NCBI GenBank assembly: GCA_964621235.1
Contig: CAZULR010000001.1
Coordinates: 1,058 to 65,057 of the forward strand
From: an uncultured Acidimicrobiaceae bacterium
Lineage (GTDB): Bacteria; Actinomycetota; Acidimicrobiia; Acidimicrobiales; RAAP-2
Length of the DNA: 64,000 bases
Direction of reading: 5' to 3'
The position numbers and the translations under genes were made by a program. Below, piece by piece: positions 30,139 to 58,838 of the stretch. Position 1 is the first letter of the stretch. Every line of letters begins with the position of its first letter. The notes beneath the pieces were generated by a model. It was not told where the DNA came from. It saw only the letters and a list, made by a program, of their open reading frames with translations, and made no database searches.

Positions 30139-30141
30139 CGT

Positions 30142-31023: not shown

Positions 31024-31176
31024 TCTTCGAGTACCACGTGGCCCCTCACCCGGTCGATTGCCTGCAGCCACGACCAAATTGTCCGAAGACGGAGGGTCGA
31101 TGAGCGCTGATAGCCTACCGCTGCGAAGGTGGGACGAGCACCCGTCCAACCACTGTCACGCTCCGGAGGTGGTCCC

Positions 31177-32966: not shown

Positions 32967-33183
32967 CGTCACGACCTCGCCCCGGAGTGCACTGCCGCAG
33001 GATGCCACATGGGTGCGGAGGTCACAAGCGTCACGACGGACCGGGCATCGACACCCGGCACGATGCCGACACTTGACGACACCGTGGCTGGGACCGATGA
33101 TCTGCCCATGGTCGAGCCACGCGGTCCAGGCGCTCGTCGACATCGGGCCCGGCCTGTCGGCATCGTGACGAGGTTCTGATCCC

Positions 33184-35779: not shown

Positions 35780-35896
35780 TCCCGTTCAGCTTCGATTCAG
35801 GCGATTCGTGGTCCCCGGATGTGCGAGGAATCGAGATCCTGACGGCCGTCGGTCCGGCGACCGGCGGTGATGGCGTCAATAGTCATCTCGGCATGC

Positions 35897-36820: not shown

Positions 36821-37041
36821 GGTCAGTCCCCTCTGTCCCTGATCACAGGCATCACGCTAGATCAACAGGTGACCGGTCATCGACGCTCGGCGTAGGCGAG
36901 ACGATATCCCGAAGCCGACCCTCGGGTTGCGGCAACAGGCGCGTTGAGCAGGCGGTTCACGCTCGCCGGAGGGCGGGCGCGACGTCTATCCGTTCGAGCC
37001 CCGCGGCCTTCCGGTGAAGGATCTCCGGTAGAGTTGACCGG

Positions 37042-39171
37042 ATGTCGGGGGGAGTGCTCGAGGCTGACCGGACGGCCGGTGGGCCACAAGCCTCGGCCGA
37101 TGTCCGCGCTCCGGCGGGCCGGGACTCGGCCAGCCGTCGACGCTTCGTCGCCGTCGCATCGGCCGGCACGCTGGTCGCGGCTGTTCCCTTCCTCTGGATC
37201 CTCACCAATGAGTGGACCGGCTCGTTCAACCTGCTGCGGAGCAACGCCGGTCCCAATTCGTTCTACGACCTTCAGGCCCAGGCCATCATGCACGGCCACT
37301 TGTGGGTGCCGAACGGAAGCCTGGGGATCGAGGGGTTCCTCCACGGCGGTCACACCTACACGTACTTCGGCTTGCTCCTCTCCCTCTTCCGGATCCCGAT
37401 GATCGCGGTCGCTCCCCGTCTCATCGGTCACCTCGCAGCTCCCTCCATGCTGGTGGCCTGGGTCCTCACGGCGCTGCTCACCTCGATGCTCATCTGGCGC
37501 ATCCGGATCCTGGTCCGGGGGGCCGCCCAACTCGGGTGGGCCGAAGCATGCTCCTACGGCGTACTGGTCACGTCGGTCCTGGCCGGATCGGTGCTGCTGT
37601 TCCTGGCGGCAGCGCCACGTGTTTCTGACGAGGACATCGCCTGGACCGTCCCGATCACCATAGGAGCGCTCTTCGTCTTCATCGGCATCCTCGATCGACC
37701 ATCGGTGTGGCGGGTGCTGGCCGCCGGAGGATTCCTGCTGGCCGGAGCGCTCGAACGCCCTCCCCCGGGCCTGGCCTGCATCGTCGGTGCGCTGCTCATC
37801 TCAGTATGGTTCCTGTCCGGGCGCGGGGGCTCCGCCCAACGACGGTGGGCACTACCGGTGGCCATCGCCGCAGTGGTGCCCTTGGCGGTCTGGTGTCTCG
37901 TCAACTGGTTGAAGTTCGGCACCGTCGTCAACGGTCTGCCGCTCATCGACCAGGTGTGGACCCACGTCAACGCCCATCGGCGCCTGTTCCTGGCAGCCAC
38001 GGGGGGGAAGGGCTACAGCTTCCATTTCCTGCCCACGACCATCTGGGCGTACCTCCAGCCGTTCGGACTCCGCGTGCAGCCGACGTTCCCGTTCCTGACG
38101 CTTCCGGTGGGATCGCCCCACGTCTTCGGTGGCTACGTCGTGGACACACTGAACCCGACAGCCAGCGTGCCGGCCACGATGCCGCTGCTCTTCGGCCTGA
38201 GTGTCTGGGGCGCCATCATGAGCTTTCGTCCGCGGGCGCCGCGTGGCCTGGCGCTGTTGCGGATACCGCTGATCGCTGCCGCGGGGGCCACCGCCGTCGA
38301 CCTGGTGCTTGGCTACATCGCCCCTCGCTACCTGGGAGATTTTCTTCCGTTCCTGATCATCGGTTCGGCGATCGGCATGGTTGAGCTCTGGGGGAGGTGG
38401 GACGGGGGAACACTGGCCCTGAAGCGCACCGTCGTCGCCGTGTTGACCCTGGTCGGGCTGTTCGGACTTGCCGCCAATATCGGGATCGCCCTCTCGCCGA
38501 CCACGGAGTGGACCGCCCGGCAGACGACCAACTACCTCAAGGTGGTCCGAGCGGTGAGCAACATCTCTGGTCACCCACTCGCTCGACAGATCAGGACCGG
38601 GCCCACCCTCCCCGATGGAGCCCCCGCCAACGAAGTGTTCATCGTCGGACAGTGCGAAGGGCTCTACCTCTCCATGGGGCCGCACCTGGCCACATCGCCT
38701 TCGGCAGTGGAGGAACACCGGACGTGGCTGCCGATCGAGCAACGTCCAAACGTCAATACGCAACTCAAAGTCACGTTCAATTCGACGACCGGGCTCGGCA
38801 CCGGCGTGCCGCTCGTGACCTTCGGACCTGACGTCGTATCGGTGCGTTCGGCGGGAGCCGGGGTGAAGTTCGTGGTTCACGATGCCAACTTCCCGATCGT
38901 CGGAAAGAAGTTCGTGCCACAGTTGGGTCACGCCTATGCCGTCCAGATCGAGTTGAACCCGATCCTCCGGCGCGTCGTGGTGCACGTCAACAGTGCCAAG
39001 GTGCTCAAGGGACCCTTGTCCCACGTCGGCAAGGGCAGCACCCCTGTCGTCGTCGCCATCCAACCGTCAGCCGCCACGGGTACGCCTCCGCTGATCGTCG
39101 TCCCACGGAAGACGGCTCCCACGAGCATGGCGCTGTGCCACAGTCTGCTCGCATCGACGAAGCGCGGCTAG
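37042..39171 (+). CDS. large polytopic GT-C-like membrane protein with C-terminal extracytoplasmic domain (paralogue A)
   Basis: 709 aa. About 12 helices over 490 aa, then a roughly 220-aa beta-rich soluble domain. Collinear similarity to 50804..52924, for example VPFLWILTNEWTGSFN / VPFLWVLTNEWTGSYN and HGHLWVPNGSLGIEGFLHGGHTYTYFGLLLS / HGHLWVATGSLGIEGFVHDGRTYTYFGLLLS. Confidence 0.8.
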   Translation: MSGGVLEADRTAGGPQASADVRAPAGRDSASRRRFVAVASAGTLVAAVPFLWILTNEWTGSFNLLRSNAGPNSFYDLQAQAIMHGHLWVPNGSLGIEGFLHGGHTYTYFGLLLSLFRIPMIAVAPRLIGHLAAPSMLVAWVLTALLTSMLIWRIRILVRGAAQLGWAEACSYGVLVTSVLAGSVLLFLAAAPRVSDEDIAWTVPITIGALFVFIGILDRPSVWRVLAAGGFLLAGALERPPPGLACIVGALLISVWFLSGRGGSAQRRWALPVAIAAVVPLAVWCLVNWLKFGTVVNGLPLIDQVWTHVNAHRRLFLAATGGKGYSFHFLPTTIWAYLQPFGLRVQPTFPFLTLPVGSPHVFGGYVVDTLNPTASVPATMPLLFGLSVWGAIMSFRPRAPRGLALLRIPLIAAAGATAVDLVLGYIAPRYLGDFLPFLIIGSAIGMVELWGRWDGGTLALKRTVVAVLTLVGLFGLAANIGIALSPTTEWTARQTTNYLKVVRAVSNISGHPLARQIRTGPTLPDGAPANEVFIVGQCEGLYLSMGPHLATSPSAVEEHRTWLPIEQRPNVNTQLKVTFNSTTGLGTGVPLVTFGPDVVSVRSAGAGVKFVVHDANFPIVGKKFVPQLGHAYAVQIELNPILRRVVVHVNSAKVLKGPLSHVGKGSTPVVVAIQPSAATGTPPLIVVPRKTAPTSMALCHSLLASTKRG

Positions 39172-39179
39172 GGCCTTCC

Positions 39180-39600
39180 CGGAGGCTCAGCCCCGGAGTC
39201 GCGACGCCTGGGACCGGACGGGACGACGTCAGCTCCGTTCGCTCGCGCCTCGACCTGAACGGTCTTGTCGTCGCCATCGGCGAGGACCTCGTCGAAGGGT
39301 CGATGGAGTGGCCGGCGACCTCGGAATCAGCGGTGGCAATGGACGAAAGCAGGACCGCCGTGCGTGCGGCTGAGGTCCACGTGGGCCTCCCGGGCCTCCG
39401 GTACGCGGAGGTCGCAATAGTCGAGTTCGCCAAGTACGTGCGGTTAGCCGCGGCCGGACTATTGGTGTCGCCCGGCGGTGACACTGGTCCACTCGGTGGA
39501 GCCGCGGCCCCACCACTCGTCGTTCCCCGGAATCGGGTGGCATTGGTGAGGGTAGAACGCCGGTGCCTCGGTGTCCGCGGCAGTCGGTGCGGATCGCCCC
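39180..39600 (-). pseudogene. decayed WbsX-type (Glyco_tran_WbsX / GH99-like) gene remnant
   Basis: Reverse strand. [27 protein letters not shown] (39481-39558) matches the WbsX N-terminal box [27 protein letters not shown] and runs into TAG at 39459-39461. A second frame continues LGELDYCDLRVPEAREAHVDLSRTHGGPAFVHCHR-TGA(39327-39329)-FRGRRPLHRPFDEVLADGD. The TGA sits where the family has the Trp of HYWF. The rest of the gene is missing. Confidence 0.55.
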
Positions 39601-39660
39601 CCGAAATGCCCTTGGACGCCGATACGACAGAACGACGTCAGGCCAGCGTGCCGATGCGGG

Positions 39661-40797
39661 TCATGTCGGGCCGGAGCGCCGGGCGCTCCGGAACGTATCG
39701 ATGATCCGCTCCTGGTCGACCGGGTTGAGCGCCGAACCACTCGGCAGGCAGAGACCGCGATCGAAGATGCCGGCTGCCACTGATCCACCCACGACGTGTG
39801 ATCCGGCGAAAGTGGGCTGGAGGTGCAGCGGCTTCCAGGTCGGGCGCGACTCGATGTCCCCGCCTTCGAGGGCCCGTCGGACATCCTCGCGATCCGCTCC
39901 GAAGCGATCCGCGTCGATGCATACACACGTCAGCCAGTAGTTCGGCTCGCCGTACTCGGCGATCGGCATGAAGGTCACACCGGGGAGGTCATCGAGAGCG
40001 GCCCGGTAGTTCGAGTTGATGTGGGCTCGCCGCTCGAGGTGGCCGGGAAGCCCCCGGAGCTGCGCCCGACCGATCGCAGCCAGCAGGTTGCTCAGCCTGT
40101 AGTTGAATCCCAGCTCGGCGTGCTCGTAGTGGGGGTAGGGGAGTCGTGCCTGCGATGCCAGGTACCGGGCACGGTCGGCCAGATCCTCGGAGGGCAGCAC
40201 CAGCATCCCGCCGCCGCTGGTGGTGATGATCTTGTTGCCGTTGAAGGAGAACACCCCGGCCTCGCCCATCGTCCCCGACGATCTCCCCCGGTAGGTGCTC
40301 CCGAGAGCTTCGGCCGCGTCCTCGATCAGGGGAATCCCGTACTGCTCGCACAGTGGGGCCAACGCGTCGTAGTCCGCCATCTGGCCGTAGAGATCCACGG
40401 TCACCAGTGCGGACGGCAGGCGACCGTGCCGAGCCCGCTCGCGGAGTTCAACCTCGACCAGTTCGGGATCGATGGTCCACGTGGCCGGTGCGCAGTCGAC
40501 GAACACGGGTTCGGCGCCCAGATAGCGCACCGCATTGGCCGTGGCGACGAAGGTGAACGTGGGCACCAGCACCTCGTCGCCCGGGCCCACGCCGCTGAGG
40601 AGGAGGGCGAGGTGGAGCGCCGCGGTGCCACTTGACAGTGCCACCGAGGGTCCTCCGTGGATGAACTCGGAGAACTCCCGCTCGAATGCGTCGACGTCGG
40701 GTCCGAGGGGCGCGATCCAATTGGAGTCGAACGCGTCGAGGAGCATCGTGCGTTCCTCGGCCCCCATGGATGGGGGGGAGAGGTAGATTCTCGTCAA
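39661..40797 (-). CDS. DegT/DnrJ/EryC1/StrS-family PLP-dependent sugar aminotransferase
   Basis: 378 aa. [17 protein letters not shown] carries the PLP lysine. The N-terminal [12 protein letters not shown] box is typical of PglE/WecE-like enzymes. Confidence 0.92.
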
Positions 40798-41753
40798 GGG
40801 ACGGCCTCCTGCTCGGGGGAGAGCGCTCCGGACGCTCCGGCCAACACCACCAGCAGCAGGGCTGCGAACCCGTCGACGATGAGTGCGTTCCGGAGCGAGG
40901 ACCGCCGACCGGTCACGACCACCGCCACCGTGATGACCAATTGTAGGCCGAAGTAGGTTCCGGTCGTCGCCAGCGTCGACCAGCCTCTGGCGACCAGAAG
41001 ATCGTACGGGTGTCGGCGGTCACCGTCGACCAACGACCGTCGGCCCCGGATCCTGCGGATCAGGGCGAATGCCACCTCGGCGACCGGGATGGCGACCAGA
41101 CCTGCGGTGGCCACGCCGAGCGTCGTCGACTCCCCGGGAGCCCACGCGCCGGAAACCATTACGGCAAGTGCCGTGCCGAGGAGATAGGCACCGCCGTCCC
41201 CCAGGTAGATCCTGGCCGGCGGCCGGTTGAACACGAGGAATCCGGCGAGGGAGGCGGCGAGCGCCACGGGCAGGAGTCGATCCGGACCGACGAGCAACAG
41301 GGCGAAGCCGATCGCGCCGAGTCCGACCACCCCCGAGGCAAGCATGTCCATCCCGTCGAGGAGATTGGCGCCGTTGATCAGCAGCACCGTGATCGGGATG
41401 ATGAGGACGGCGACGATACCGGGCACATGGAGGGGGCAGACCACGAGCACCACACCGCCGATGACGAGCTCCGCTCCCAGGCGCAGGGCGGGGGGAAGGC
41501 CGCGCTTGTCGTCGGCGATGCCGAGGGCCAGCGCCAGCAGGAGGGGAACGAGCACGGAGACCCGGTGACCGAACATGCCGACTGCGACTCCGGCCATGAC
41601 GGCCGCACCACCCAGGTACGGGACCGACGATGACTGGGACTTCAGGGGACCGGGCCGATCCACGATCCCGGTGCGCCGGGCCACCACGATGGCGACCGGT
41701 GTCGCCGCCAACGTCGTCGCCAGTGCGAGGAGGGCGACCACCACGACGTTCAT
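40794..41753 (-). CDS. polyprenyl-phosphate HexNAc-1-phosphate transferase (MraY/WecA family, initiating enzyme)
   Basis: ORF 40794..41786. ATG 41753 overlaps the upstream stop (ATGA). VDRPGPLKSQSSSVPYLGG, IADDKRGLP, NGANLLDGMDMLASG and IYLGDGGAYLLG. Confidence 0.9.
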   Translation of the reverse strand: MNVVVVALLALATTLAATPVAIVVARRTGIVDRPGPLKSQSSSVPYLGGAAVMAGVAVGMFGHRVSVLVPLLLALALGIADDKRGLPPALRLGAELVIGGVVLVVCPLHVPGIVAVLIIPITVLLINGANLLDGMDMLASGVVGLGAIGFALLLVGPDRLLPVALAASLAGFLVFNRPPARIYLGDGGAYLLGTALAVMVSGAWAPGESTTLGVATAGLVAIPVAEVAFALIRRIRGRRSLVDGDRRHPYDLLVARGWSTLATTGTYFGLQLVITVAVVVTGRRSSLRNALIVDGFAALLLVVLAGASGALSPEQEAVP

Positions 41754-42388
41754 GACGATGGACCCCCATCCGGTGGCCGCCGCCACTGCATGAGCAACGA
41801 CACCGTGCCGGCGTGCAGCTCGAACCGACCGGCCACCACGAAGCCGGCACGCCCGTAGAAGCGGACAGCCCCGACGTTGTCGGCCGCTACCACGACGTGC
41901 GCCGCGTCACGACCGTCCCCTGTCGCCCGATCCAGGAAGGCACGGATGAGGGACTCGCCCACGCCCTCCCCCTGCCGGCCCGGGTCGACGGCGATAGCCA
42001 GCAATTCGACCCCGGATCCACGGGGACCGTCCGATCCGGTGCCGTGCCGGAGCGTCTCGAGCGCGGATCGCCAGTGGCGTAGCAGTCGTCCGGCCGATGC
42101 CCAGGCCACCCGGAGGCCGTCGTGGACGAGGAAGTCGCGGTACAGGGCCCCGACATCCGCTGATCCGGCGACGAACCCGACGACCCCACCGTTGTCCTCG
42201 GCGACCATCAGGAACGAACCGGGTGACAGGCAGATCCGGCGGTAGAGGTGCGAGAGGAAGCTCGGTCCGAGCAACGAGAGGAACCCACCTCGGATCTGCC
42301 CGCTGTGGAGTCGGGCCACGGCGGCTGCGTCAGTGCCCGCTCCCGGGCGGATTCGCCAGGCGTCCCGGTCCGACGGGGGAGCTGTCAC
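41750..42388 (-). CDS. GNAT-family N-acetyltransferase
   Basis: 212 aa. LLAIAVDPGRQGEGVGESLI (acetyl-CoA Q/RxxGxG/A motif) and VGAVRFYGRAGF. Confidence 0.85.
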   Translation of the reverse strand: MTAPPSDRDAWRIRPGAGTDAAAVARLHSGQIRGGFLSLLGPSFLSHLYRRICLSPGSFLMVAEDNGGVVGFVAGSADVGALYRDFLVHDGLRVAWASAGRLLRHWRSALETLRHGTGSDGPRGSGVELLAIAVDPGRQGEGVGESLIRAFLDRATGDGRDAAHVVVAADNVGAVRFYGRAGFVVAGRFELHAGTVSLLMQWRRPPDGGPSS

Positions 42389-42608
42389 GGCAGGTCGAGG
42401 GGCAATCCGCTGACGTCACGAGTCGTCCCGCCCGTCGCCTCCAGAGAGTCGCCGACGCCAGCTCCACGTGGGTTGACCTGCACGGTGGACCCCATCGTCA
42501 TCTCCTTCGGCTCCGGGGGTGGTCCGCGCCCCAGCGCCGCGGCTGCACCCTCCGGTCCGTCAATTGGGCCTTTTCCGGCGTGAATTCCATGGAGTAAGTT
42601 AGGTTGCC

Positions 42609-43544
42609 ATGGAATCGGGCACGGGGCTGGGGGCGACAGGACAGTACCAACTGTCCCATCTGCGAACAATCGAGGCACAATCGATTCACATCATCCGGGA
42701 AGTGGCGGCCGAGTTCGAGCGACCCGTCCTGCTGTTCTCCGGTGGCAAGGACTCGGTGGTGATGCTGCGGCTGGCCCAGAAGGCCTTCTGGCCCGGGCGG
42801 ATTCCGTTCCCGGTGATGCACATCGACACCGGACACAATTTTCCTGAAGTCCTCGAGTTCCGCGATCGCATCGTCGCCGAGTTGGAGGCCTCGCTACTGG
42901 TCGCCTCCGTCCAGCAGTCGATCGACGCCGGCAGGTCAGTCGACGAGCCCGGACCGAATCCGTCCCGCAACCGGCTGCAGACGCGGACCCTCCTCGACGC
43001 CATCACCGAGTACAAGTTCGACGCCGTCTTCGGGGGGGCCCGCCGGGACGAGGAGAAGGCCCGGGCCAAGGAACGGGTGTACTCCTTCCGCGACGAATTC
43101 GGCCAGTGGGAGCCGAAGAACCAGCGCCCGGAACTTTGGTCGCTGTACAACGGCCGTCACCAGAGTGGCGAACACATCCGGGTGTTTCCGATCTCGGACT
43201 GGACGGAGCTCGACGTCTGGCAGTACGTGGGAGAAGAGGGCCTCGATCTCCCGAGCATCTACTACTCACACCGCCGAGAGGTCTTCCGCCGGGACGGCAT
43301 GCTCCTTGCCAAAGGACCGTTCGTGTCGGTGGCATCGGACGAGGAGCAGTTCGAAGCAACGGTTCGCTATCGGACCGTAGGGGACATGACCTGTACCGGG
43401 GCCGTCGAGTCCTACGCTGCGACGGTCGACGACATCATCCTGGAGGTGGCGGCGTCCCGACTCACGGAGCGTGGAGCGACCCGGGCGGACGATCGGGCGA
43501 GTGAAGCTTCGATGGAGGATCGCAAGCGAGAGGGCTACTTCTGA
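42609..43544 (+). CDS. cysD: sulfate adenylyltransferase subunit 2
   Basis: 311 aa. LSHLRTIEAQSIHIIREVAAEFERPVLLFSGGKDSVVMLRLAQKAFWPGRIPFPVMHIDTGHNF is collinear with E. coli CysD. Confidence 0.95.
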   Translation: MESGTGLGATGQYQLSHLRTIEAQSIHIIREVAAEFERPVLLFSGGKDSVVMLRLAQKAFWPGRIPFPVMHIDTGHNFPEVLEFRDRIVAELEASLLVASVQQSIDAGRSVDEPGPNPSRNRLQTRTLLDAITEYKFDAVFGGARRDEEKARAKERVYSFRDEFGQWEPKNQRPELWSLYNGRHQSGEHIRVFPISDWTELDVWQYVGEEGLDLPSIYYSHRREVFRRDGMLLAKGPFVSVASDEEQFEATVRYRTVGDMTCTGAVESYAATVDDIILEVAASRLTERGATRADDRASEASMEDRKREGYF

Positions 43545-44794
43545 TGGAACTCCTGCGCTTTGCCACTGCGGGGTCGGTCGACGACGGCAAGAGCACGTTG
43601 ATCGGACGTCTGCTCTACGACTCCAAGGCGATTTTCGAAGATCAGCTCGAGGCGGTCGAACGTGTCAGCGTCCAGCGTGGAAACGACTACACGGATCTCG
43701 CGCTCCTGACCGACGGACTGCGGGCGGAGCGGGAGCAGGGCATCACCATCGACGTCGCCTACCGCTATTTCGCCACCCCGGCCCGGAAGTTCATCATCGC
43801 CGATACTCCCGGGCACATCCAGTACACGCGCAACATGGTGACCGGGAACTCGACTGCCGACCTGACCATCGTGTTGATCGACGCCCGGAAGGGCATCGTC
43901 GAACAGACCCGGCGCCATGCGTTCCTGGCCTCACTGCTCCGGGTCCCGCACCTCTTGATCTGTGTCAACAAGATGGACCTGGTCGACTATGACCAGGGGG
44001 TCTTCGACGCCATCCGGGAGGAGTTCACGGCGTTCGCCAGCCGCCTTGAAGTCGCCGACATGACGTTCATCCCCATCTCGGCGCTGCAGGGCGACAATGT
44101 AGTGCAGCGTTCGGTCAACATGGACTGGTACGAGGGCGCATCCCTGCTGCACCACCTCGAGCAGGTCTACATCTCCTCGGACCGCAATCTGATCGACCCC
44201 CGACTCCCGGTGCAGTGGGTGGTCCGGCCCCAGGCCACGGACTGGCCTGACTACCGTGGCTACGCCGGTCGGATCGAGGGTGGCGTGTTCCGTCCGGGGG
44301 ACGAGGTGTTGGTGCTCCCTTCCGGACTGACGACGACCGTCGCCGCCATCGACACCTATGACGGTCCGGTCGAGGAGGCCTTCGCGCCGATGTCGGTCAC
44401 CGTGCGCTTGACCGAGGACATCGACGTATCGCGTGGCGACCTCATCTGTCGTCCGAACAACCGTCCGGTGGTGGGACAGGACCTCGACGCCATGGTGTGC
44501 TGGATGACCGAGCGACCGCTGCGAAAGGGCGACTTCTTCGCCTTGAAGCACACGACCCGATGGGTGAGGGCCGTGGTACGGGACGTGCACTACCGCCTGG
44601 ACGTGAACACACTCCATCGGGACGAAGATGCCTCGTCACTCGGCCTCAACGACGTGGGACGGGTGAGCTTCCGTGTGACGAAGCCGCTCTTCTACGACAG
44701 CTACCGCAGGAACCGTCACACCGGATCGTTCATCCTGGCCGCCGAGGACACGAATGTCACGGCCGGAGCGGGCATGCTGCTCGGTCCCGACTGA
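43544..44794 (+). CDS. cysN: sulfate adenylyltransferase subunit 1 (GTPase)
   Basis: 416 aa. G1 GSVDDGKST, G3 DTPGH, G4 NKMD. Its start overlaps the cysD stop (TGATG). Confidence 0.95.
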   Translation: MELLRFATAGSVDDGKSTLIGRLLYDSKAIFEDQLEAVERVSVQRGNDYTDLALLTDGLRAEREQGITIDVAYRYFATPARKFIIADTPGHIQYTRNMVTGNSTADLTIVLIDARKGIVEQTRRHAFLASLLRVPHLLICVNKMDLVDYDQGVFDAIREEFTAFASRLEVADMTFIPISALQGDNVVQRSVNMDWYEGASLLHHLEQVYISSDRNLIDPRLPVQWVVRPQATDWPDYRGYAGRIEGGVFRPGDEVLVLPSGLTTTVAAIDTYDGPVEEAFAPMSVTVRLTEDIDVSRGDLICRPNNRPVVGQDLDAMVCWMTERPLRKGDFFALKHTTRWVRAVVRDVHYRLDVNTLHRDEDASSLGLNDVGRVSFRVTKPLFYDSYRRNRHTGSFILAAEDTNVTAGAGMLLGPD

Positions 44795-44813
44795 GTCGGG
44801 ACGTCAGCGGACG

Positions 44814-45443
44814 GTGTCATCGAACATCACCTGGCACGCGGGCCACGTCAGTTCCTCTGATCGGTCCCTTGCCGTCACGAGCCGGGGAGCGACGCTGTGG
44901 CTGACCGGGCTGTCCGGTTCAGGGAAGTCGACTCTGGCCGCGGCGGTCGAGCACCGACTGGTGCTCGAAGGTCGCGCCGCCTACCGCCTCGATGGGGACA
45001 ACCTGCGCTCGGGCCTCAACGGTGACCTGGGGTTCGACCGGGAGGCCCGCGAGGAGAATGGTCGTCGGGTCGGCGAGGTGGCCCGGCTCTTCGCCGATGC
45101 CGGACTCGTCGCTGTGGTCGCGATCATCAGCCCCTACGCAGAGTCCAGGGCCCACGTCCGGGCGATCCACGAGACCTCGGGCCTGCCCTTCGTCGAGGTC
45201 TACCTGACCGCATCGGCGGAGCAGTGTGCGGAGAGGGATCCGAAGGGGCTGTACGCACAGGCCTCTCGCGGCGATCTGTCCAGCTTCACCGGAATCGACG
45301 ATCCCTATGAGGTCCCGGCGTCACCCGATCTGGTCATCGACCCGGACGTCGGCGTCGAGGAGGCCGTCGACCTCGTGCTGTCCGCTCTGAACCGCGCGAC
45401 CGGCGCGGTCCAGAGCGGCACTGACGCCGCAGCTCATCCCTAG
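44814..45443 (+). CDS. cysC: adenylyl-sulfate (APS) kinase
   Basis: ORF 44754..45443. GTG 44814 (VSSNITWHAGHV) lies just after the cysN stop. P-loop LWLTGLSGSGKST. It is a separate ORF, not fused to cysN. Confidence 0.9.
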   Translation: MSSNITWHAGHVSSSDRSLAVTSRGATLWLTGLSGSGKSTLAAAVEHRLVLEGRAAYRLDGDNLRSGLNGDLGFDREAREENGRRVGEVARLFADAGLVAVVAIISPYAESRAHVRAIHETSGLPFVEVYLTASAEQCAERDPKGLYAQASRGDLSSFTGIDDPYEVPASPDLVIDPDVGVEEAVDLVLSALNRATGAVQSGTDAAAHP

Positions 45444-45852
45444 GGTCCAGAGCCGGCAGAGAGGGACTCCACCCGCCGAGACGTTGTGGCGTTGACGAGT
45501 GCCCAACGGGGAGACACGGGCGACCGGGGATTGACTCCGAAGTCATAGCCGTGTGGAGCTTGGATCGACAGGAATTCCAGGAGGTCCGCCTCGAGGATGG
45601 GTCGGCCGATGAACGTGCCGTGTTCGAAAAGACCGGCTGAAGGTATGGCTTCCATCACTCAGTCCTCGGCCCCGAGGCCGCCGACCGTCTCAGCCTCGAG
45701 CGCGGTTGTGCGAGACCGAATCATGCGCGATCCGGTGCGCCGGGCGAGTGGCGACAGCGGTTGCCTCAAGAGCACTTGTACCGGTTCAAGGAACTGACGG
45801 GCGATCTGGTCGTACGGCTGGGATTCGACGACGACCCTGATCGCTGAGTGGT

Positions 45853-47160
45853 TCAGTTCAACGGCACCGGTCCACGGACTTCCGGGCCGGCCTTGGTGAC
45901 CTCCGACACGAGTCGGCCAACCTTCTCCTTGGCCGCCGTCCATTCATACCGGTCGAGATAGAGCGCTTCGGCGGCGTTTACGAGCCGCTGCCGCAGCTCC
46001 GGATCGGTGAGCAGTCGCTGGCAGGCGTCGGCAAACGCCTCGGCGTCATCGGCCAGCAGCAGGTGGACTCCGTCCTCGACATCGAGGCCGTCGGCACCTA
46101 ACCGGGTCGAGACGACGGGGATCCGGTGGGCGAAGGACTCGAGGATCTTGAGTCGGGTCCCGCTGCCGATCCGGAGTGGCACCACCGCCAGATCTGCACG
46201 TTCCAACTCAGGTTCCATGTCGGGAACCTGGCCCGTGACGACTACCTGTGGTGGGTGGTTGTGACGTTCGACGCCGGCGGTGGCCCGGCCAACGAGGCGG
46301 ATCTGGACGTTCGGGATCCGGTGGCGGAGGAGTGGTCCGATGTCGCCGACCAGCCAGTCGGCACCGTCGATATTCGGCGCATAGCGGAGGCTCCCTTGCA
46401 GGAGCACGACCGGAGGGTCTCCCACCACGACCGAGCCCATCTGGCTGGTCGGTGCGGGATAGGTGTTGGGGATCGAAAGCGCATTCGGAAATCCCGATCG
46501 CTTGACGTCGGATTCACTGCAGAGAACGACACGATCGACATCCTTGGCAACCGATTCTTGCAAGGCGATCCAGTCACGGGCGTTCTTGCTCGCCTGTGCC
46601 GCGGCGACGCGCAGCTTCAAGAAGTCGACTCCGTCTCGAGGTTTGGCCAGAGTCCGAAGCAGGCCGGCACGCTGGCGTGCCTTCTCGTCCTCGAGGTCCA
46701 CCAGGTCAATGACCGTAGGACCCAGGTTCGGGCGACCCATCCAGATGAAGGTCGCCGCAGTGGAGAACCACACCAGGTCGTATCGTTCCGCGGCCCATGC
46801 CTCGAACTGGATCCGCGGCGAGCGATCGAGCATCCGCATGGACACTTCCAAGGGAAGCGATCGTTGGGCCAGCCACTTCAGGCGCCAGTGCAGTTGACGG
46901 GGGGCGCCCGGGTAGAGGACGGTTCGAACCCGTCGGACCTTGATCGACGGTGGAACTTCGAATTCATCACCGCGCCTGATGTCATGCAAGGTGAAGAGGT
47001 CGACCTCACCGAGCTCGGCGATCGCCTCGATCATCTTGGCCAATCTGATGAGTCCCCCACCGGTGGAAGGCCACGGAAAGTCTTCTGCCACGATCAGAAT
47101 GGATAACGGACCTCCGTCCCTGCCCGTCATGGTTGGGGGCACGATGGATCGGTCGGTCAC
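45853..47160 (-). CDS. GT-B glycosyltransferase, family 4
   Basis: 435 aa. IGSGTRLKILESFAHRIPVVSTRLGADGL. Paralogue of 24330..25550. Confidence 0.9.
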   Translation of the reverse strand: MTDRSIVPPTMTGRDGGPLSILIVAEDFPWPSTGGGLIRLAKMIEAIAELGEVDLFTLHDIRRGDEFEVPPSIKVRRVRTVLYPGAPRQLHWRLKWLAQRSLPLEVSMRMLDRSPRIQFEAWAAERYDLVWFSTAATFIWMGRPNLGPTVIDLVDLEDEKARQRAGLLRTLAKPRDGVDFLKLRVAAAQASKNARDWIALQESVAKDVDRVVLCSESDVKRSGFPNALSIPNTYPAPTSQMGSVVVGDPPVVLLQGSLRYAPNIDGADWLVGDIGPLLRHRIPNVQIRLVGRATAGVERHNHPPQVVVTGQVPDMEPELERADLAVVPLRIGSGTRLKILESFAHRIPVVSTRLGADGLDVEDGVHLLLADDAEAFADACQRLLTDPELRQRLVNAAEALYLDRYEWTAAKEKVGRLVSEVTKAGPEVRGPVPLN

Positions 47161-48695
47161 TTGGATCTACTCCGCATCCCGGCGAGGCGCTTCTTCAGGC
47201 GAACCGACGGAAGTGACTCGATGTACGACGTCTTCGCGTTCAGGAACGCCCGGGATTCGGCCAGCTCCGTTCTCAGGCCTTCGATCTGCGCTTCGAAGGA
47301 GGCGATGTATTCGTCCTTGATGGCGGCTTCCGATCGAAGGGCCTCGATCTCCCTCATCATCTGTGCGTGATCATCGAGGGCAGGGCGTCCGCCCAGTTCA
47401 CTACTGGGGAAGTCGTCCGACATTCGCTCAGGGTACCAGCCGCTCCGGGGTGCACCTCTGGGCTTCGGGGCCCGCGCTGCACGCCGGTTGGCCTCTTCCA
47501 CCACGGAGCTGACTGCCCGACCTTCGTCGAACTCGATGTCGACCTCGGGAGTTACCTTCCGGCCAGCGCGTCGGGCCCCGGTGGCATAGGCGGAGAAATG
47601 GTCCTGATCGGCGATGACCGCGTCGAACTCGACGCCGGGCGCCAGTCGAACCTGATCGGCGCCCGTCCTGGTGACCTCGACTCCCAGGTCGGCCATCCGG
47701 TCGAGCATCGTCGTGTCCGCCGGTTCCGACATGGAGACAGTGACTCCCCACCCGGCCCGGGCCAGAGCCTCGGCCAGTGCCCATACGGCTGCTTCCCCGT
47801 CCGGAGTTCGGACGACGTGACTGATCAGCGCGCGGGGCAGGTCGCCGCGTGCTCGCTCGACCGCGGCGGTGATGGAACCCGGATCGTCGTGGGCAACGGG
47901 AATGAGGCACTGGTCGAGCACCGATGCCCATCGTGCGACCAGTCGTTGTCGGTTCCGCAGCAGGAGGAATATCCGGAAGTTTCTGGAGGTGCTCTGACTT
48001 TCGAGGTGAACCAGTAGCGCCCGAGGCTCGTACACGACCCGATACCCGAGCTGATTGAGGGAGAGACAGAAATCGACGTCCTCGTAGTACGCGGGGAAGT
48101 ACCCCGGATCGAGTCCACCGACGGCTTCCCATGCATCGCGCCGCACCAGGAGTGCGTTGGCCGAGATGTAGTCCACGGCACGAACCGCGGAGTAGGCGTC
48201 GGTGTGAGGAGGGAGTCCCAGGCCGACATGCGCAGCTGAACCATCTCGCCAGAGAACCGACCCCGCCTCTTGAAGCGTGCCGTCGGTCGAGAGGATGCGC
48301 GCTCCGACCGCTCCGATGGACGGATCGCGCTCGGCGGTGGCGACCAGTCGGTCGACAGCTCCCGCCTGGAGGACGCTGTCGTCGTTGAGCAACAAGAAGT
48401 ACCGACCACGGGCGATCCCGGCGGCGAGATTGTTGCCCCCAGCGAATCCGAGGTTCGCCCGGCTGCGAACCACCACAATGTCGTCTCGCGCCTCGAGCAA
48501 GTCCGCGGCGGCGGCAGGGGTCCCATTGGCCACGACGACGGTCTCGACGGCGGTCCCAGATGCCGCGTCGAGGGCATCCAGTCCACGCAGCGCGTTGGTG
48601 ACATCGGCCATGACCAGCATGATGACCGACACGGTGGGTGCGTCGGGTACCAGCACACCCCGGCGGATGTAGGACGCTGCGTTCGGGTCGGTCAT
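47157..48695 (-). CDS. family-2 glycosyltransferase with extra central domain and C-terminal coiled-coil tail
   Basis: 512 aa. VSVIMLV, VVVANGT, NLGFAGGNN and LLLNDDS. The C-terminal roughly 60 aa are heptad-like (MMREIEALRSEAAIKDEYIASFEAQIEGLRTELAESRAFL, about 47160-47430). Confidence 0.85.
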   Translation of the reverse strand: MTDPNAASYIRRGVLVPDAPTVSVIMLVMADVTNALRGLDALDAASGTAVETVVVANGTPAAAADLLEARDDIVVVRSRANLGFAGGNNLAAGIARGRYFLLLNDDSVLQAGAVDRLVATAERDPSIGAVGARILSTDGTLQEAGSVLWRDGSAAHVGLGLPPHTDAYSAVRAVDYISANALLVRRDAWEAVGGLDPGYFPAYYEDVDFCLSLNQLGYRVVYEPRALLVHLESQSTSRNFRIFLLLRNRQRLVARWASVLDQCLIPVAHDDPGSITAAVERARGDLPRALISHVVRTPDGEAAVWALAEALARAGWGVTVSMSEPADTTMLDRMADLGVEVTRTGADQVRLAPGVEFDAVIADQDHFSAYATGARRAGRKVTPEVDIEFDEGRAVSSVVEEANRRAARAPKPRGAPRSGWYPERMSDDFPSSELGGRPALDDHAQMMREIEALRSEAAIKDEYIASFEAQIEGLRTELAESRAFLNAKTSYIESLPSVRLKKRLAGMRSRSK

Positions 48696-48732
48696 GTGCG
48701 TGCGAACGGGACGTGCGGCGAGGGTGCCGCCA

Positions 48733-49614
48733 TCAACCGCCGGGAGCCCGGAAGGTGACCAGCTGCGCCATCTGCGGATAGTCCCTACAGACGGCGAACT
48801 CCTCGAGGCGGCACAAAATGGCGTCAGCCGAGAACTCCGCGTACCCGTTCAGTTCCCTACGGTCGCCACTCACCATGGTGAAGCCCAGGATGTCATCGAT
48901 CCAAGCGACCGAGGCATTCGTCCCCCAGACATTTTCAATCTGTGAGCAGAAGGGCGAGAGGTTGAGGAAGAGGTCGATCGTGAGGACCAAGAGGCCACCG
49001 GGCGCAAGGCGCTCCTTCACGGCCAACAGCGTGGCCTTGATGTCCTCGCGCGAGAGGTGCTCGATCGTCGAGATGCAAACGGCCGCGGAAAACGTCCCCG
49101 AGAGATCAGCTTCGGGAAGTGTCGACCGGTGTAGCCGCACGTCGGTGCCGAATACCTTGTTGAGTGCGTGGTGCTCCGCCACGGGATCCACCTCGTAGTC
49201 GCCGCTCCCATAGTCGAAGAACGGATCGACATTGTGAACTTCGTGGCCCTCCTTCGCCAAGACGAACTGAAGACCGGATAGCGCACCTCCGATCTCGAGG
49301 ATTCGAGAGGGACCGAGATCGGCGAGCTGGTGATAGGCCCACGGGAACTCGACCGATCGGGTGGGCGTGTTCCACTGGAAGGCGAACGGTCCCTGAGATC
49401 GTCGGACTTGTGCAGTTTGAAAGAACGGGCGCGTGGCGGGAGCCGGGAGCCGCCGGATGATCGAAAATGTTGCCTGGTGCCGTCCGCCAGGTGCACCCCA
49501 CCGGCGGTTCCACCGCTCAAATTCTGGCGGGAGTTCCCGTCTAGCCAGCATGCGTTGCCCCTGTTGATGCGGTCGAGTTGCGTCACTATAACTGGAATCA
49601 ACCAGAGAACCCAT
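48733..49614 (-). CDS. class I SAM-dependent methyltransferase
   Basis: 293 aa. ILEIGGALSGLQF (motif I), FSAAVCISTIEHL and LAPGGLLVLTI. Confidence 0.8.
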   Translation of the reverse strand: MGSLVDSSYSDATRPHQQGQRMLARRELPPEFERWNRRWGAPGGRHQATFSIIRRLPAPATRPFFQTAQVRRSQGPFAFQWNTPTRSVEFPWAYHQLADLGPSRILEIGGALSGLQFVLAKEGHEVHNVDPFFDYGSGDYEVDPVAEHHALNKVFGTDVRLHRSTLPEADLSGTFSAAVCISTIEHLSREDIKATLLAVKERLAPGGLLVLTIDLFLNLSPFCSQIENVWGTNASVAWIDDILGFTMVSGDRRELNGYAEFSADAILCRLEEFAVCRDYPQMAQLVTFRAPGG

Positions 49615-49946
49615 GGTGCCGGTGCCTGTCGACTCCGCTTGTCAATCACCACCGCTCGGTCATCGTCCGCACCGTGAAGTACCCGCGGAGCTCCAGCGGG
49701 ACAGAGGCTATTCCGCCGGAGGCGTTTGCCCGAACCAACCCGGGATAGAGCTGGTTCTGACCGCACCCCAGGAGGAATCCACGTGTTCTGGCTAAGCGAC
49801 CACCACGGCGTGAGCTCGAGTGTCGTCAATTTTGAGGACACGATGGAGAAGAAGTCGCACCATCCCCTTCGGTCGGTTGGCGGAAGCGGCGATGAACCCG
49901 TAGAATCAGCTGCATTGGGGGCGAGGAACGACGCAGGCGAGGGCAG

Positions 49947-50735
49947 ATGCGGTTGAACAGGTGGCACAGGATCACCGCAGCCTTGGCAATAATGATGTTG
50001 ACCGTCGGCGGTTCGATGGTGACGGCAGGGGTGGCGGAAGGTGCCCAGTCCGCTGGGGCTCGACCGATTCTGATCTTCAATTCCGCCGCACAGCAGGCCC
50101 AGCTGACCATCCCGACGCCCCCCTGTCCGAAGTCGGACAAGCATTGCAAGTGGATGCTCTACATGAACCTTCCGACCATGCCGATGCAGCCACGCGTGGG
50201 GTACGTCCTCGGTAAGTCAGGCACGCTGACGATCGACTACCCCAAGTTCTGTGGCCAGATCCAGGCTGACGCACTCGTCGGACCGGCCCCCTGGATCTAC
50301 AAGACCGGCATCCGCACGCAGATCCATACTTGCCACGAAACCACGACGACCACCACGACGACAACTTCGACGACTTCGACAACTACGACAACTACGACAA
50401 CGACCCGACCCACGACCACGTCGAGCACGGTTCCGCCCGTCGTCGCGGCGAGTTCCACCACACCCACGACGGCAGCCACGTCTTCGGCGCTCCCGTTCTC
50501 GGATCCTTCCACGACCTCGACCCCAGCGGTGGAGAAGACGGCAGCCGAGTTGCCATTCACTGGTGTCGACATCAAACCGCTGGGCCTCATCGGCACAATG
50601 CTGATTATCTTGGGGGGCATTCTCCTCTCCACCGTCGAATCGCGACGCAGAATGTTTCGGCGGGCGGCTGCCGTCAATCTCGACCAGGTGAAGGACGGCG
50701 TGCGGAATACGACCGCATGGTTCCTCGGACAGTAG
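49947..50735 (+). CDS. secreted Thr-rich cell-wall protein with LPXTG-type sorting signal
   Basis: 262 aa. Signal peptide (ITAALAIMMLTVGGSMVTAGVAEGAQS). Globular roughly 95-aa Cys-containing domain. Thr/Ser/Pro linker (about 50338-50490). LPFTG (50550-50564), a hydrophobic helix and RRRMFRR, followed by an atypical extra tail of about 25 aa. Confidence 0.8.
   Translation: MRLNRWHRITAALAIMMLTVGGSMVTAGVAEGAQSAGARPILIFNSAAQQAQLTIPTPPCPKSDKHCKWMLYMNLPTMPMQPRVGYVLGKSGTLTIDYPKFCGQIQADALVGPAPWIYKTGIRTQIHTCHETTTTTTTTTSTTSTTTTTTTTTRPTTTSSTVPPVVAASSTTPTTAATSSALPFSDPSTTSTPAVEKTAAELPFTGVDIKPLGLIGTMLIILGGILLSTVESRRRMFRRAAAVNLDQVKDGVRNTTAWFLGQ
50364..50399 (+). repeat. four imperfect tandem copies of a 9-nt Thr/Ser-codon unit inside the LPXTG gene
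   Basis: ACTTCGACG ACTTCGACA ACTACGACA ACTACGACA, read directly from the sequence and embedded in a longer ACN-rich tract. Confidence 0.8.
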
Positions 50736-50803
50736 GCATGCCCGCGTGGATGCCGGGCCACCCGACTGGGTTTCCCGAGCCTCTCCCGGACTAGAATCCC
50801 GAC

Positions 50804-52924
50804 ATGGCAGGGGTGGGATTGGAGTCTCGTGAGGAGGCCACGCGGGTGGTGGCGGCCAACTCCGACGTTCCTCCGGGGGACCAGCGTGGCGTAAGGCGAT
50901 TCGTGGTGGCCTCGATCCTGGGCGGAATCGTGGCTGCGGTGCCGTTCCTGTGGGTGCTCACGAATGAGTGGACCGGCTCCTACAACGGCGAACGTCGAAT
51001 CTCCTACCTGAGCGGCTTCTACGACAATCAGGCCGAGTCGATGATCCACGGCCATCTGTGGGTCGCTACGGGGAGCCTCGGCATCGAGGGATTCGTGCAT
51101 GACGGCCGGACCTATACCTACTTCGGCCTGTTGCTCTCCATCCTGAGGATCCCGTTCCTTCTGGTAGCGCCAGGCCTGAACGGACACCTGACGGCCCCGT
51201 CGATGTTGGTGGCGTGGCTACTGACCGGACTCTTCGCGGGGTTGCTGATCTGGCGCGTGCGGGTGCTGCTGCGGGGTCCGGTGGCGATCGGCTGGGCGGA
51301 ATCAATCTCCTGGGGCGTGGTGATGACCGCGATCCTCGGCGGCTCGGTACTCCTGTTCCTGGCTTCCGCGCCCTGGGTCTACGACGAGGACATCGCGTGG
51401 ACCGTCCCCATCACCGTCGCGACGCTCTTCGTCTTCCTCGGCATCCTCGAGCGGCCCACCGCCGGCAAAGTGCTCGCCGCAGGCGGGTTGGTGCTGGCCG
51501 GCGTCCTCGAACGCCCGTCACCGGCACTGGCGTGCATCGTCGGCGCCCTGCTCATCGCCGCCTGGTTCTACTTCGGTCGGGGCGAATCGCGACATCGCCG
51601 ATGGGCCCTCCCGATGGTGGCCGTCGGGGTCGTGCCGTTCGTGGTCTCCAGCGTGGTCAATTGGGTGAAGTTCGGAACGGTGCTGAACGGTCTTCCCCTG
51701 TCCGAACAGGTGTGGACCCAGGTGAATGCCCACCGGAGGGCGTTCCTGGCGGCGACCGGAGGAAAGGGGTACAGCTTCCACTTCCTCCCGACGATGTTCT
51801 GGGCGTACCTCCAGCCGTTCGGACTACGCGCCCAGCCGACGTTTCCGTTCCTCTCCCTACCGATCGCGCCACCCCATGTCTATGGCGGCTATATCGTCGA
51901 TATCCTGTATCCGACAGCCAGCGTTCCGGCGTCGATGCCCCTCCTGTTCCTCTTGAGCTGTTGGGCACTCGTCATGGCCTTCCGGCCGCATCCGAGTAGG
52001 GGTATGGTCCTGATGCGGATCCCGTTGCTGGTCGGGGTGGGCGCCACCTTGGTCGATTTCCTCCTGGGATACATCGCCCCCCGCTATCTGGGCGACTTCC
52101 TTCCGTTCCTCGTGCTCGGCGCGGCCATCGGGCTGGTCGATCTGTGGAGGCGATGGGATGGTTGGGCGCAACGGGCGAAGTGGCTTGCTGTTGGCGGCGT
52201 GATCGTTCTCGCGCTGTTCTCCGTCGCGGCCAACCTGGGAATCGCATTGACACCCACGACCGAGTGGACCCCGAAACAGTCGACCCACTACCTCCAGGCT
52301 GTCAACGCAGTGAGCAGCGTCACCGGGAACCCACTCAGGCGGCAGATCACCGTGGGCACCGTGATGCCCTACCAGGCACCGGCAGGCCAGGTGTTCATCG
52401 GCGGAGACTGCGTCGGCATGTATCTCTCTTCGGGTAAGCCGGTCTCGGCCGATCCCACCTTGCAGCGCGAGCACAAGATGTGGGTTCCCGTCGAGCAGAG
52501 TTCGGCCATCATCACCCGGATGGTGATGACCTTCAGCGCGCCGGCGGAGATCGGACCTGGTCTTCCGGTGCTGACGGTCGGCAGTGATGTCGTATCCCTC
52601 CGATCCGTCGGTGACCGGAGCGTGCAGTTCGTACTCGATGATCCGCGCTTTCCGATCACCGGCAAACGCGTGACTCCGAAGATCGGGCATACCTACCACC
52701 TCGTCGTCACGGCCGATCCGTTCCTGAACAGGATCACGCTGAACATGGGCAATCGCACGGTGCTGTCGGGGGTTCTCACGGGGGCGGGCACCGGCACCTC
52801 GCCGTTGGTCGTACACACCACCCCGCCTTCCTCCGTGGACGCCGTGCCGCCGGTCGTCATCGCCCATGGGCGACAGACCGTCCTGGACATGTCGCTGTGC
52901 CGTAGCCTGCTCAAGAACCGCTGA
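50804..52924 (+). CDS. large polytopic GT-C-like membrane protein with C-terminal extracytoplasmic domain (paralogue B)
   Basis: 706 aa, collinear with 37042..39171 over its full length, including the C-terminal domain (VTFGPDVVSVRSAGAGVKFVVHDANFPIVGKKF / LTVGSDVVSLRSVGDRSVQFVLDDPRFPITGKRV). Confidence 0.8.
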   Translation: MAGVGLESREEATRVVAANSDVPPGDQRGVRRFVVASILGGIVAAVPFLWVLTNEWTGSYNGERRISYLSGFYDNQAESMIHGHLWVATGSLGIEGFVHDGRTYTYFGLLLSILRIPFLLVAPGLNGHLTAPSMLVAWLLTGLFAGLLIWRVRVLLRGPVAIGWAESISWGVVMTAILGGSVLLFLASAPWVYDEDIAWTVPITVATLFVFLGILERPTAGKVLAAGGLVLAGVLERPSPALACIVGALLIAAWFYFGRGESRHRRWALPMVAVGVVPFVVSSVVNWVKFGTVLNGLPLSEQVWTQVNAHRRAFLAATGGKGYSFHFLPTMFWAYLQPFGLRAQPTFPFLSLPIAPPHVYGGYIVDILYPTASVPASMPLLFLLSCWALVMAFRPHPSRGMVLMRIPLLVGVGATLVDFLLGYIAPRYLGDFLPFLVLGAAIGLVDLWRRWDGWAQRAKWLAVGGVIVLALFSVAANLGIALTPTTEWTPKQSTHYLQAVNAVSSVTGNPLRRQITVGTVMPYQAPAGQVFIGGDCVGMYLSSGKPVSADPTLQREHKMWVPVEQSSAIITRMVMTFSAPAEIGPGLPVLTVGSDVVSLRSVGDRSVQFVLDDPRFPITGKRVTPKIGHTYHLVVTADPFLNRITLNMGNRTVLSGVLTGAGTGTSPLVVHTTPPSSVDAVPPVVIAHGRQTVLDMSLCRSLLKNR

Positions 52925-54758: not shown

Positions 54759-55058
54759 CGGAACAGATCGTCCACGGATCGGCATTTAGTACGAGGCAGC
54801 GTCAGCTGGAAAGTCAGGGCCAGGATTCCGGTCGAGCTCATAGATGGACTCGAATAACGAAGCTGCGGGGTCGTCTGCCGAGCTGACGCCTACGTGCATG
54901 GCGATCGGGGCAGAACCGTTCAGGCGGGTCGGTGTGGAGCAAACCCCGCGGTTCCCAAGGATCGCCTGTGGTTACGACGGAGTCAGCGGTGCCTGCGTGA
55001 GGGGGTGGTTCGCCGCCGTGAACGAGTCGTCGGCCAGTTCGACACCCATGACTACGCG

Positions 55059-58828: not shown

Positions 58829-58838
58829 TTGATCGAGG

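Follow-up and report, generated by a model that had tools for sequence, protein, structure and literature searches.

Sulfate-activation and sulfotransferase genes in a glycan island of an uncultured Acidimicrobiaceae bacterium: a predicted sulfated envelope polysaccharide

Sulfate-activation and sulfotransferase genes of the locus

We analyzed a 64,000-nt stretch of contig CAZULR010000001.1 from an uncultured Acidimicrobiaceae bacterium (the whole stretch is called the window below), in which cysD, cysN and cysC, the genes for synthesis of 3'-phosphoadenosine 5'-phosphosulfate (PAPS), lie in a glycan island together with three intact sulfotransferase genes. A preliminary description of this DNA had noted that the three cys genes are contiguous; all three are intact, adjoining, on the same strand and above the curated family cut-offs. 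The 311-aa product of cysD (42609..43544, forward strand), the small subunit of sulfate adenylyltransferase, matched Pfam PAPS_reduct (PF01507, 2.8e-44) and exceeded the cut-offs of the NCBIfam CysD models NF003587 (462 bits, cut-off 195), TIGR02039 (448 bits, cut-off 397) and NF009214 (433 bits, cut-off 413). It carries the PP-loop SGGKDS, and the public gene call coincides exactly with 42609-43544. The start codon of cysN (43544..44794, forward strand) overlaps the cysD stop codon. Its 416-aa product, the GTPase subunit of ATP sulfurylase, matched GTP_EFTU (4e-42) and GTP-eEF1A_C in Pfam and TIGR02034 in NCBIfam (555 bits, cut-off 336), and the G1 (GSVDDGKST), G3 (DTPGH) and G4 (NKMD) motifs can all be read in the translation. 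The APS kinase (adenosine 5'-phosphosulfate kinase) gene cysC (44754..45443, forward strand) encodes a protein with the P-loop GLSGSGKST and matches to APS_kinase (PF01583, 4.7e-61), TIGR00455 (209 bits, cut-off 139) and NF003013 (219 bits, cut-off 163). The cysN and cysC open reading frames (ORFs) overlap by 41 nt and are separate genes; the true cysC start is possibly near 44814. CysN has no kinase domain and is therefore not a CysN-CysC fusion of the NodQ type.

Three ORFs had been described as sulfotransferases of different subfamilies carrying PAPS-binding signatures, and this assignment stood up to profile searches and motif comparison. All three scored above the Pfam gathering scores that apply to the Sulfotransfer_1/Sulfotransfer_3 matches (27 and 22), and no additional Pfam domain was detected in any of them. 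ST1 (7064..7963, forward strand, 299 aa) is a distant member of the Sulfotransfer_3 family (34.4 bits against a gathering score of 27). ST2 (32070..32966, reverse strand, 298 aa) is of the carbohydrate type and matched Sulfotransfer_1 with 60.0 bits (3e-16), with a further score of 53.1 bits; its ORF is open to 33260, and the 298-aa version agrees with the public gene call. ST3 (53811..54758, forward strand, 315 aa) matched Sulfotransfer_3 with 103.8 bits (2e-29), with a further score of 37.0 bits. The three proteins are almost unalignable with each other (best pairwise BLASTP E = 7e-5) and thus belong to different subfamilies, and the 5'-phosphosulfate loop (xxSGT) and the 3'-phosphate motif (R....S) are conserved in each of the three families. 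ST1-ST3 and CysDNC are full-length and keep all family-invariant residues, and their GC content at the third codon position (0.76-0.85) is typical for coding genes here.

ST1 is the weakest case of the three. It has 197 homologs, nearly all annotated as Sulfotransfer_3, and GGVGGSGTR, WGWKEPN, R165 and S173 show little or no variation in a family of 48 homologs. In ST1 a glycine takes the place of the Lys or Arg that usually comes before SGT, which leaves the catalytic residue of ST1 uncertain. The sulfotransferase fold was tested by structure prediction for ST1 only. In the AlphaFold2 model (predicted local distance difference test score, pLDDT, 94) GGVGGSGTR and R165/S173 fall on strand-loop-helix elements, and each of the 50 best fold matches in the PDB was a PAPS sulfotransferase, mycobacterial Stf1 and Stf9 among them, although the TM-scores were modest (0.30-0.53).

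ST2 and ST3 were matched to solved sulfotransferases by sequence. ST2 is related to heparan sulfate glucosamine 3-O-sulfotransferases (PDB 3uan, 1vkj and 1t8t, 2e-14 to 5e-14), and the alignment pairs GVxKxGTT, E-TP-YF and RDPxxRxxS; in ST2 these correspond, by alignment to 3-OST-1, to the lysine loop GVQKAGTT, the catalytic-base context GEWTPDYF (E118) and the 3'-phosphate motif RDPVDRLKS. Residues G56, G61, T62, E118, R147, P149 and S155 are invariant across 16 related ORFs. Of the three, ST2 is the most promising candidate for a true carbohydrate O-sulfotransferase, being 3-OST-like and placed between GT2 genes and an ATP-binding cassette (ABC) exporter. Among solved proteins, ST3 comes closest to the CurM sulfotransferase domain (CurM ST) and tyrosylprotein sulfotransferases (TPST; PDB 4gbm, 8e-6). 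Residues G29, R32, S33, G34, T35, K147, R172, H173, P174 and S180 are invariant in 36 homologs of ST3, as are the motifs EARSGTS, EKTP and RHPVDTLSS in the family. Near-identical copies of ST3 and its neighboring genes are present in an independent sample.

For comparison with relatives we used the best 80 of >593 CysD loci, with the 10-kb neighborhoods around cysD; labels such as L002 denote these loci. The preliminary description had also listed two decayed sulfotransferase copies, the second as a possibility; the first was confirmed. A pseudogene of a fourth type, ST4, lies at 35151..35779 (reverse strand). In tblastn searches with intact orthologs of 342-352 aa (L004:3749-4777 and L002:3849-4907) it was recovered over three reading frames, at 35758-35705 ('PAGPWLLVVGKYRSGTSA'), 35667-35578 and 35564-35199, with a small deletion after the P-loop and the C-terminal ~140 aa gone. 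The intact orthologs carry GMHRSGTS and WRxPxxVAxS and gave sub-threshold scores against Sulfotransfer_3 (22-24 bits), yet across the full length of the model. Sequencing error was considered as the source of the frameshifts and rejected: the reading frame changes at least three times within 600 bp, a deletion and the loss of the C-terminus fall in the same stretch, and the neighboring genes are intact. Real decay is the more likely reading of this sequence, although the error profile of the assembly is not known. The other proposed copy, in the spacer between cysC and a GT1 gene (45444..45852), fell away: tblastn with all sulfotransferase types and blastx against 2815 ORFs of related loci gave a best E of 0.4. 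An ORF over the right half of this spacer (45659-45943) had no Pfam match. In NCBIfam, no named family was found for ST1, ST2, ST4 or the large proteins encoded at 8109, 37042 and 50804.

At 39273-39623 the reverse strand codes for only the N-terminal ~117 residues of a WbsX-glycosyltransferase and methyltransferase protein of ~700 aa, which is intact beside the DegT gene in relatives (L002:4955-7138 and L004:4785-6905). Together, the ST4 pseudogene and this fragment indicate that the 35-39.7 kb part of the island has been remodeled. Two long ORFs with high GC at the third codon position differ from the public gene calls: 37042-39171 (forward strand, 709 aa), for which 596 and 102 aa are called in other frames, and 47157-48695 (reverse strand, 512 aa), for which the call covers 191 aa only. 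Both products have homologs in relatives, and the disagreement could reflect frameshifts, assembly errors or miscalls.

The glycan island and its conservation in relatives

The preliminary description placed the PAPS and sulfotransferase genes in a glycan locus, and Pfam scans of 48 ORFs agree: the genes around them form a glycan island, not an assimilation operon. The window has a G+C content of ~65%, and ORFs with high third-position GC tile it with almost no gaps. The island (2172..63966, ~60 kb) takes up essentially the whole window. The 10 kb read to the left of the window hold housekeeping genes (gatCAB, GH43 and cation efflux), which set the left boundary of the island near position 2000. 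It encodes at least 12 glycosyltransferases (GT2, GT4/GT1) and 8 methyltransferase domains, and its enzymes of sugar-nucleotide modification comprise a PglF-like 4,6-dehydratase, a UDP-glucose dehydrogenase, an epimerase, a formyltransferase and an AsnB-type amidotransferase. An O-acyltransferase and a 2-oxoglutarate oxygenase are also present. On the reverse strand, next to cysD, lie genes for a DegT-type aminotransferase (39661-40797), a WecA/MraY-family polyprenyl-phosphate sugar-1-phosphate transferase, which is of the initiating type (40794-41786), and a GNAT acetyltransferase (41750-42388). A Wzm/Wzt-type ABC-2 polysaccharide exporter is encoded on the forward strand by a permease gene (28035-28964, ABC2_membrane 1.5e-10) and an ATPase gene (28945-30138, ABC_tran 1.1e-17), and it is the likely export route of a glycan sulfated in the cytoplasm. 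As had been noted before, the window holds neither cysH nor sulfite-reductase genes: among the 48 ORFs only CysD matched PAPS_reduct, and no sulfite reductase, sulfatase, polyketide synthase (PKS), nonribosomal peptide synthetase (NRPS) or lipid-synthesis gene was found in the Pfam scans.

The region 42389..42608 separates the GNAT-WecA-DegT operon (reverse strand) from the divergent cysDNC genes (forward strand). Alignment with six relatives revealed a conserved TAGATT-like -10 box immediately 5' of the cysD ATG, and the region may serve as a promoter. Such a box ~10 nt before the start codon suggests a very short or absent leader. A CCATCGGCTAGATT-like element with a -10-type TAGATT/TAAGTT box is kept just 5' of cysD at 42570-42608 and in L002-L007. 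A riboswitch or other known RNA that could couple cysD to sulfur-amino-acid regulation was also sought: Rfam gave no match at gathering thresholds in the window and none at E <= 1 in 42300-42700.

The window belongs to contig_5065 (706,522 bp) of ENA ERZ25039454, a soil metagenome assembly. The closest genomes are metagenome-assembled genomes (MAGs) of uncultured Acidimicrobiaceae/Acidimicrobiales with CysD 88% identical. The divergent DegT-WecA-GNAT / cysD-cysN-cysC block is complete in L002, L004 and L005 (53-71% identity); in L003 DegT (71%) and GNAT (56%) were matched and no WecA match passed the filter. All four of these closest species (L002-L005) have ST2-like genes. Intact ST4 lies within the locus in L002-L004, and the ST4-type ORF of L005 is only ~165 aa. 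The ST2- and ST4-type genes of the relatives are found upstream of the block. In L007, cysDNC adjoins homologs of the deacetylase, formyltransferase, PAP2 and epimerase genes of the window, which belong to another part of the island.

Sulfotransferase genes were detected within 10 kb of cysD in ~31 of the 80 loci by jackhmmer (E < 1e-20) and in 18 of the 80 by single-pass phmmer, in Acidimicrobiaceae, Streptosporangium, Solirubrobacteraceae and others. A Solirubrobacteraceae MAG (L069) has four tandem ST2-like genes beside cysDNC and GT4 genes, and L092 combines an ST3 homolog (41% identical) and a second sulfotransferase with GT2, cysD-cysN-cysC and GT4. Homologs of ST1 and ST3 elsewhere are flanked by glycosyltransferases and methyltransferases. 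The four loci with cysH directly 5' of cysD (CysH was confirmed by Pfam in two of these, the truly assimilatory cysH-cysD-cysN loci L045 and L070) have neither cysC nor a sulfotransferase nearby. Conservation of the block in the closest species and the presence of sulfotransferases near cysD in so many loci support a real coupling of PAPS supply to glycan synthesis. Putative cysDN(C)-sulfotransferase cassettes recur in several soil Actinomycetota, a finding that goes beyond the preliminary description.

In many cultured Streptosporangium genomes a Sulfotransfer_3 gene is located directly 3' of cysD-cysN, and an ST2-like gene often follows at a distance of 5 kb (L014, L018, L019, L026, L030, L032, L037, L039 and L041; ~12.5-13.9 kb). 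Such cultured strains could serve to test PAPS-linked sulfation. In L088 (ERZ25039542 contig_785, 4.69 Mb; 3061-12042) a 76%-identical ST3 homolog lies beside a phage-type integrase, a TrwC relaxase, a GH16-like gene and a GT1 gene, and the ST3-type sulfotransferase may travel on an integrative element.

Two further features lie toward the right end of the window. A YfhO-family membrane protein followed by a GtrB-like GT2 is encoded at 56366-59837 (forward strand); in Firmicutes a YfhO and GtrB-like pair serves extracytoplasmic glycosylation of wall polymers. Tandem paralogs at 61006-61755 and 62269-62946 (both reverse strand) are 82.7% identical over 225 aa, have signal-peptide-like N-termini and are rich in Thr, Ser and Gly. 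They matched no Pfam family, an identical 225-aa protein occurs in three other metagenomes, and these paralogs at the island edge might be (glyco)proteins that are secreted or displayed on the surface. In addition, the ORF at 19915-21570 gave a weak ParA-like match and could encode a chain-length regulator.

Origin of cysDNC and alternative explanations

The preliminary description regarded cysDNC as a dedicated PAPS module, a view that the comparison with relatives did not support. CysD identity declines smoothly through the Acidimicrobiia (88, 88, 84, 83, 84, 82, 79 and 77%). In three loci the cysDNC ortholog is back-to-back with an inositol-monophosphatase-family gene (L006:9144-9914, L008:1359-2114 and L033:9169-9924), which is probably the phosphatase CysQ that acts on 3'-phosphoadenosine 5'-phosphate (PAP). 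No genome occurred twice among the best 80 of >593 CysD loci, a set that leaves paralogs below ~67% identity outside. The identity gradient, the orthologs linked to cysQ-like genes and the absence of a genome listed twice suggest the ordinary cysDNC of the lineage. From these sequence comparisons it is more likely that cysDNC is the ordinary, possibly the only, copy, relocated into or retained in the island, than that a second copy was added. It is probably co-regulated with the glycan genes.

We concluded that the window probably represents a cell-envelope glycan island that holds a sulfate-activation pathway and directs synthesis of a sulfated envelope polysaccharide, and we put the probability of this reading at about 0.65. 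Given the gene identities, their embedding in the glycan island and the linkage conserved across species, a sulfated envelope glycan would be the most economical prediction from the sequence. In the proposed pathway, CysD and CysN, a GTP-driven ATP sulfurylase, would make APS from sulfate in the cytoplasm and CysC would phosphorylate APS to PAPS. The soluble, PAPS-dependent ST1-ST3 would then move sulfate onto sugar hydroxyl (or amino) groups, also in the cytoplasm, acting on different positions or on different glycans, either lipid-linked or as sugar nucleotides. The acceptors would most likely be polyprenyl-phosphate-linked glycans started by the WecA-like transferase. The products could leave the cell through Wzm/Wzt or through a second route of the Wzy type, and later extracytoplasmic glycosylation through GtrB/YfhO would be possible. 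Gene content is the basis on which we deduce the acceptors, which glycan is sulfated, when sulfation takes place and how the product is exported.

Several observations weigh against this prediction. One of the four sulfotransferase genes is already a pseudogene, and the solved enzymes closest to ST1 and ST3 act on polyketide, peptide or lipid-linked substrates. The Pfam scans of the 48 window ORFs found neither a PAP phosphatase (cysQ) nor a sulfate transporter. Adjacency of cysC, tried as a predictor of sulfotransferase presence, was uncorrelated with it across the 80 loci (16/24/15/25, Fisher p = 1). Acceptor specificity is not readable from sequence.

The last but one of these points would fit an arrangement in which cysDNC mainly serves Cys/Met synthesis as a housekeeping system, cysC supplies a PAPS-dependent CysH encoded elsewhere, the island position is accidental and the sulfotransferases draw on the general PAPS pool. 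The vertical ortholog of cysDNC outside glycan loci in other Acidimicrobiia (L006, L008 and L033) and the lack of a MAG represented twice among the best 80 CysD loci are in line with it. However, the closest species retain the GNAT-WecA-DegT / cysDNC arrangement, and in L007, where the locus is rearranged, cysDNC is still found with island genes. Moreover, no cysH, sir or sulfate transporter gene was found near cysDNC in the window or in L002-L009, and many Actinomycetota reduce APS directly, in which case CysC is not needed for assimilation. We consider a mainly housekeeping role unlikely. The sulfotransferases might instead act on lipids, as for mycobacterial sulfolipid, on secreted proteins or peptides (tyrosine sulfation) or on small molecules, with the glycan genes unrelated to them. 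This would accord with CurM ST, TPST and mycobacterial Stf1/Stf9 as the closest solved structures to ST1 and ST3, and with the presence of the two Thr/Ser-rich, putatively secreted paralogs at 61006-62946. Yet the specific relationship of ST2 is with sulfotransferases acting on carbohydrate (heparan sulfate 3-O), homologs of the ST1, ST2 and ST3 types recur among glycosyltransferases in unrelated contigs, and the Pfam scans of the window found no PKS, NRPS or lipid-synthesis genes; non-glycan acceptors are thus improbable in our judgment, a shade more so than the housekeeping role.

We also weighed whether sulfation is being lost, that is, whether the island is in decay and its surviving sulfotransferase genes are unexpressed or non-functional. 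The ST4 pseudogene, the truncated WbsX-methyltransferase fragment and the public gene calls that disagree with the long ORFs at 37042-39171 and 47157-48695 could be taken as signs of this. The intact invariant residues and coding-type third-position GC of the full-length ST1-3 and CysDNC speak against it, as do the near-identical ST3 and neighbors in the independent sample, and we regard such a loss as very improbable. The sulfated envelope polysaccharide remains our preferred reading, and of the preliminary description the gene identities and the island embedding were upheld, with a linkage that is conserved across species; the terms dedicated and unusual and the second decayed copy were not.

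Significance and comparison with known systems

Chemically proven bacterial sulfated polysaccharides are few and come from cyanobacteria, some marine Proteobacteria and rhizobia. The present locus extends the genomic signature to uncultured soil Acidimicrobiaceae, and the signature recurs in several soil lineages. A broader and more tentative proposal, which we would not yet favor, is that sulfated, heavily methylated envelope or secreted polysaccharides are a common unrecognized trait of abundant uncultured soil Actinomycetota (Acidimicrobiaceae, Solirubrobacteraceae and also Streptosporangium), built from recurring cysDN(C) and multi-sulfotransferase cassettes. Were this true, the large ester-sulfate fraction of soil organic sulfur would have a direct microbial source in these bacteria, which would also be the first monoderm lineages of soil to possess wall polymers that are sulfated and glycosaminoglycan-like. 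The analysis offers concrete genes, namely four sulfotransferase families and a conserved DegT-WecA-GNAT/cysDNC core. In practical terms, it points to genes from which new carbohydrate sulfotransferases may be drawn and to a possible origin of soil ester sulfate. The type of locus is already known in other bacteria; the lineage is new, and no new mechanism is implied. Among the papers searched, we found none linking Acidimicrobiia with sulfotransferases, nor one on sulfated wall glycopolymers of actinobacteria.

In Sinorhizobium meliloti, CysD- and CysN/CysC-type genes (NodP/NodQ) stand beside the carbohydrate sulfotransferase gene nodH and provide PAPS for Nod factor sulfation. There, NodPQ come in addition to the housekeeping cysDN, NodQ combines CysN and CysC in a fusion, and sulfate is transferred to a lipo-chitooligosaccharide signal, not to an envelope polymer. 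Mycobacteria use a single CysD/CysNC system for both assimilation (through APS) and sulfotransferases (through PAPS); these sulfotransferases are scattered in the genome and act on trehalose lipids, glycopeptidolipids and menaquinone. Stf1 and Stf9 from this system are among the fold matches of the ST1 model. To our knowledge, the synechan (xss) cluster of Synechocystis is without PAPS genes. Its sulfotransferases are embedded in the exopolysaccharide cluster (PMC8205485).

The preliminary description had called a locus of this kind unusual, which appears overstated: Vibrio sp. KMM 8419 offers a published case of the same design (PMC11641403), a further one has been proposed in Actinoplanes (PMC13390465), and sulfotransferases lie near cysD in ~31 of the 80 loci. 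Vibrio sp. KMM 8419 makes a sulfated capsular polysaccharide whose structure was solved by nuclear magnetic resonance, and its authors see the presence of PAPS genes and sulfotransferase genes within one polysaccharide cluster as a hallmark of the synthesis of sulfated polysaccharides (PMC11641403). This combination is found in the window, where cysDNC, ST1-3, the glycosyltransferases, Wzm/Wzt and the WecA-like initiator lie together. As here, the Vibrio cluster unites cysD, cysN, cysC, three sulfotransferases, many glycosyltransferases and an ABC exporter (PMC11641403). It belongs to a Gram-negative marine gammaproteobacterium, its cysDNC is explicitly a second copy and its exporter is of the Kps type (PMC11641403), whereas the present locus belongs to a monoderm soil Acidimicrobiaceae bacterium and its sulfotransferases are unrelated in sequence.

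A closer counterpart in taxonomy is the wps-1 cluster of Actinoplanes missouriensis, also of the Actinomycetota, for which a sulfated polysaccharide was proposed in 2026, with sulfation still a possibility awaiting verification (PMC13390465). Both loci have sulfotransferases of different families, one of them of the heparan-sulfate type, and in both sulfation is predicted. In wps-1, two sulfotransferases and a methyltransferase are accompanied by an adjacent gene for sulfate adenylyltransferase/APS kinase that is required for the phenotype (PMC13390465). The cluster depends on Wzx/Wzy and has one fused gene of the CysNC-like type, and its mutants show a sporangium-matrix phenotype (PMC13390465), whereas the Acidimicrobiaceae locus has separate cysD, cysN and cysC, three intact sulfotransferases and one decayed, and an ABC exporter.

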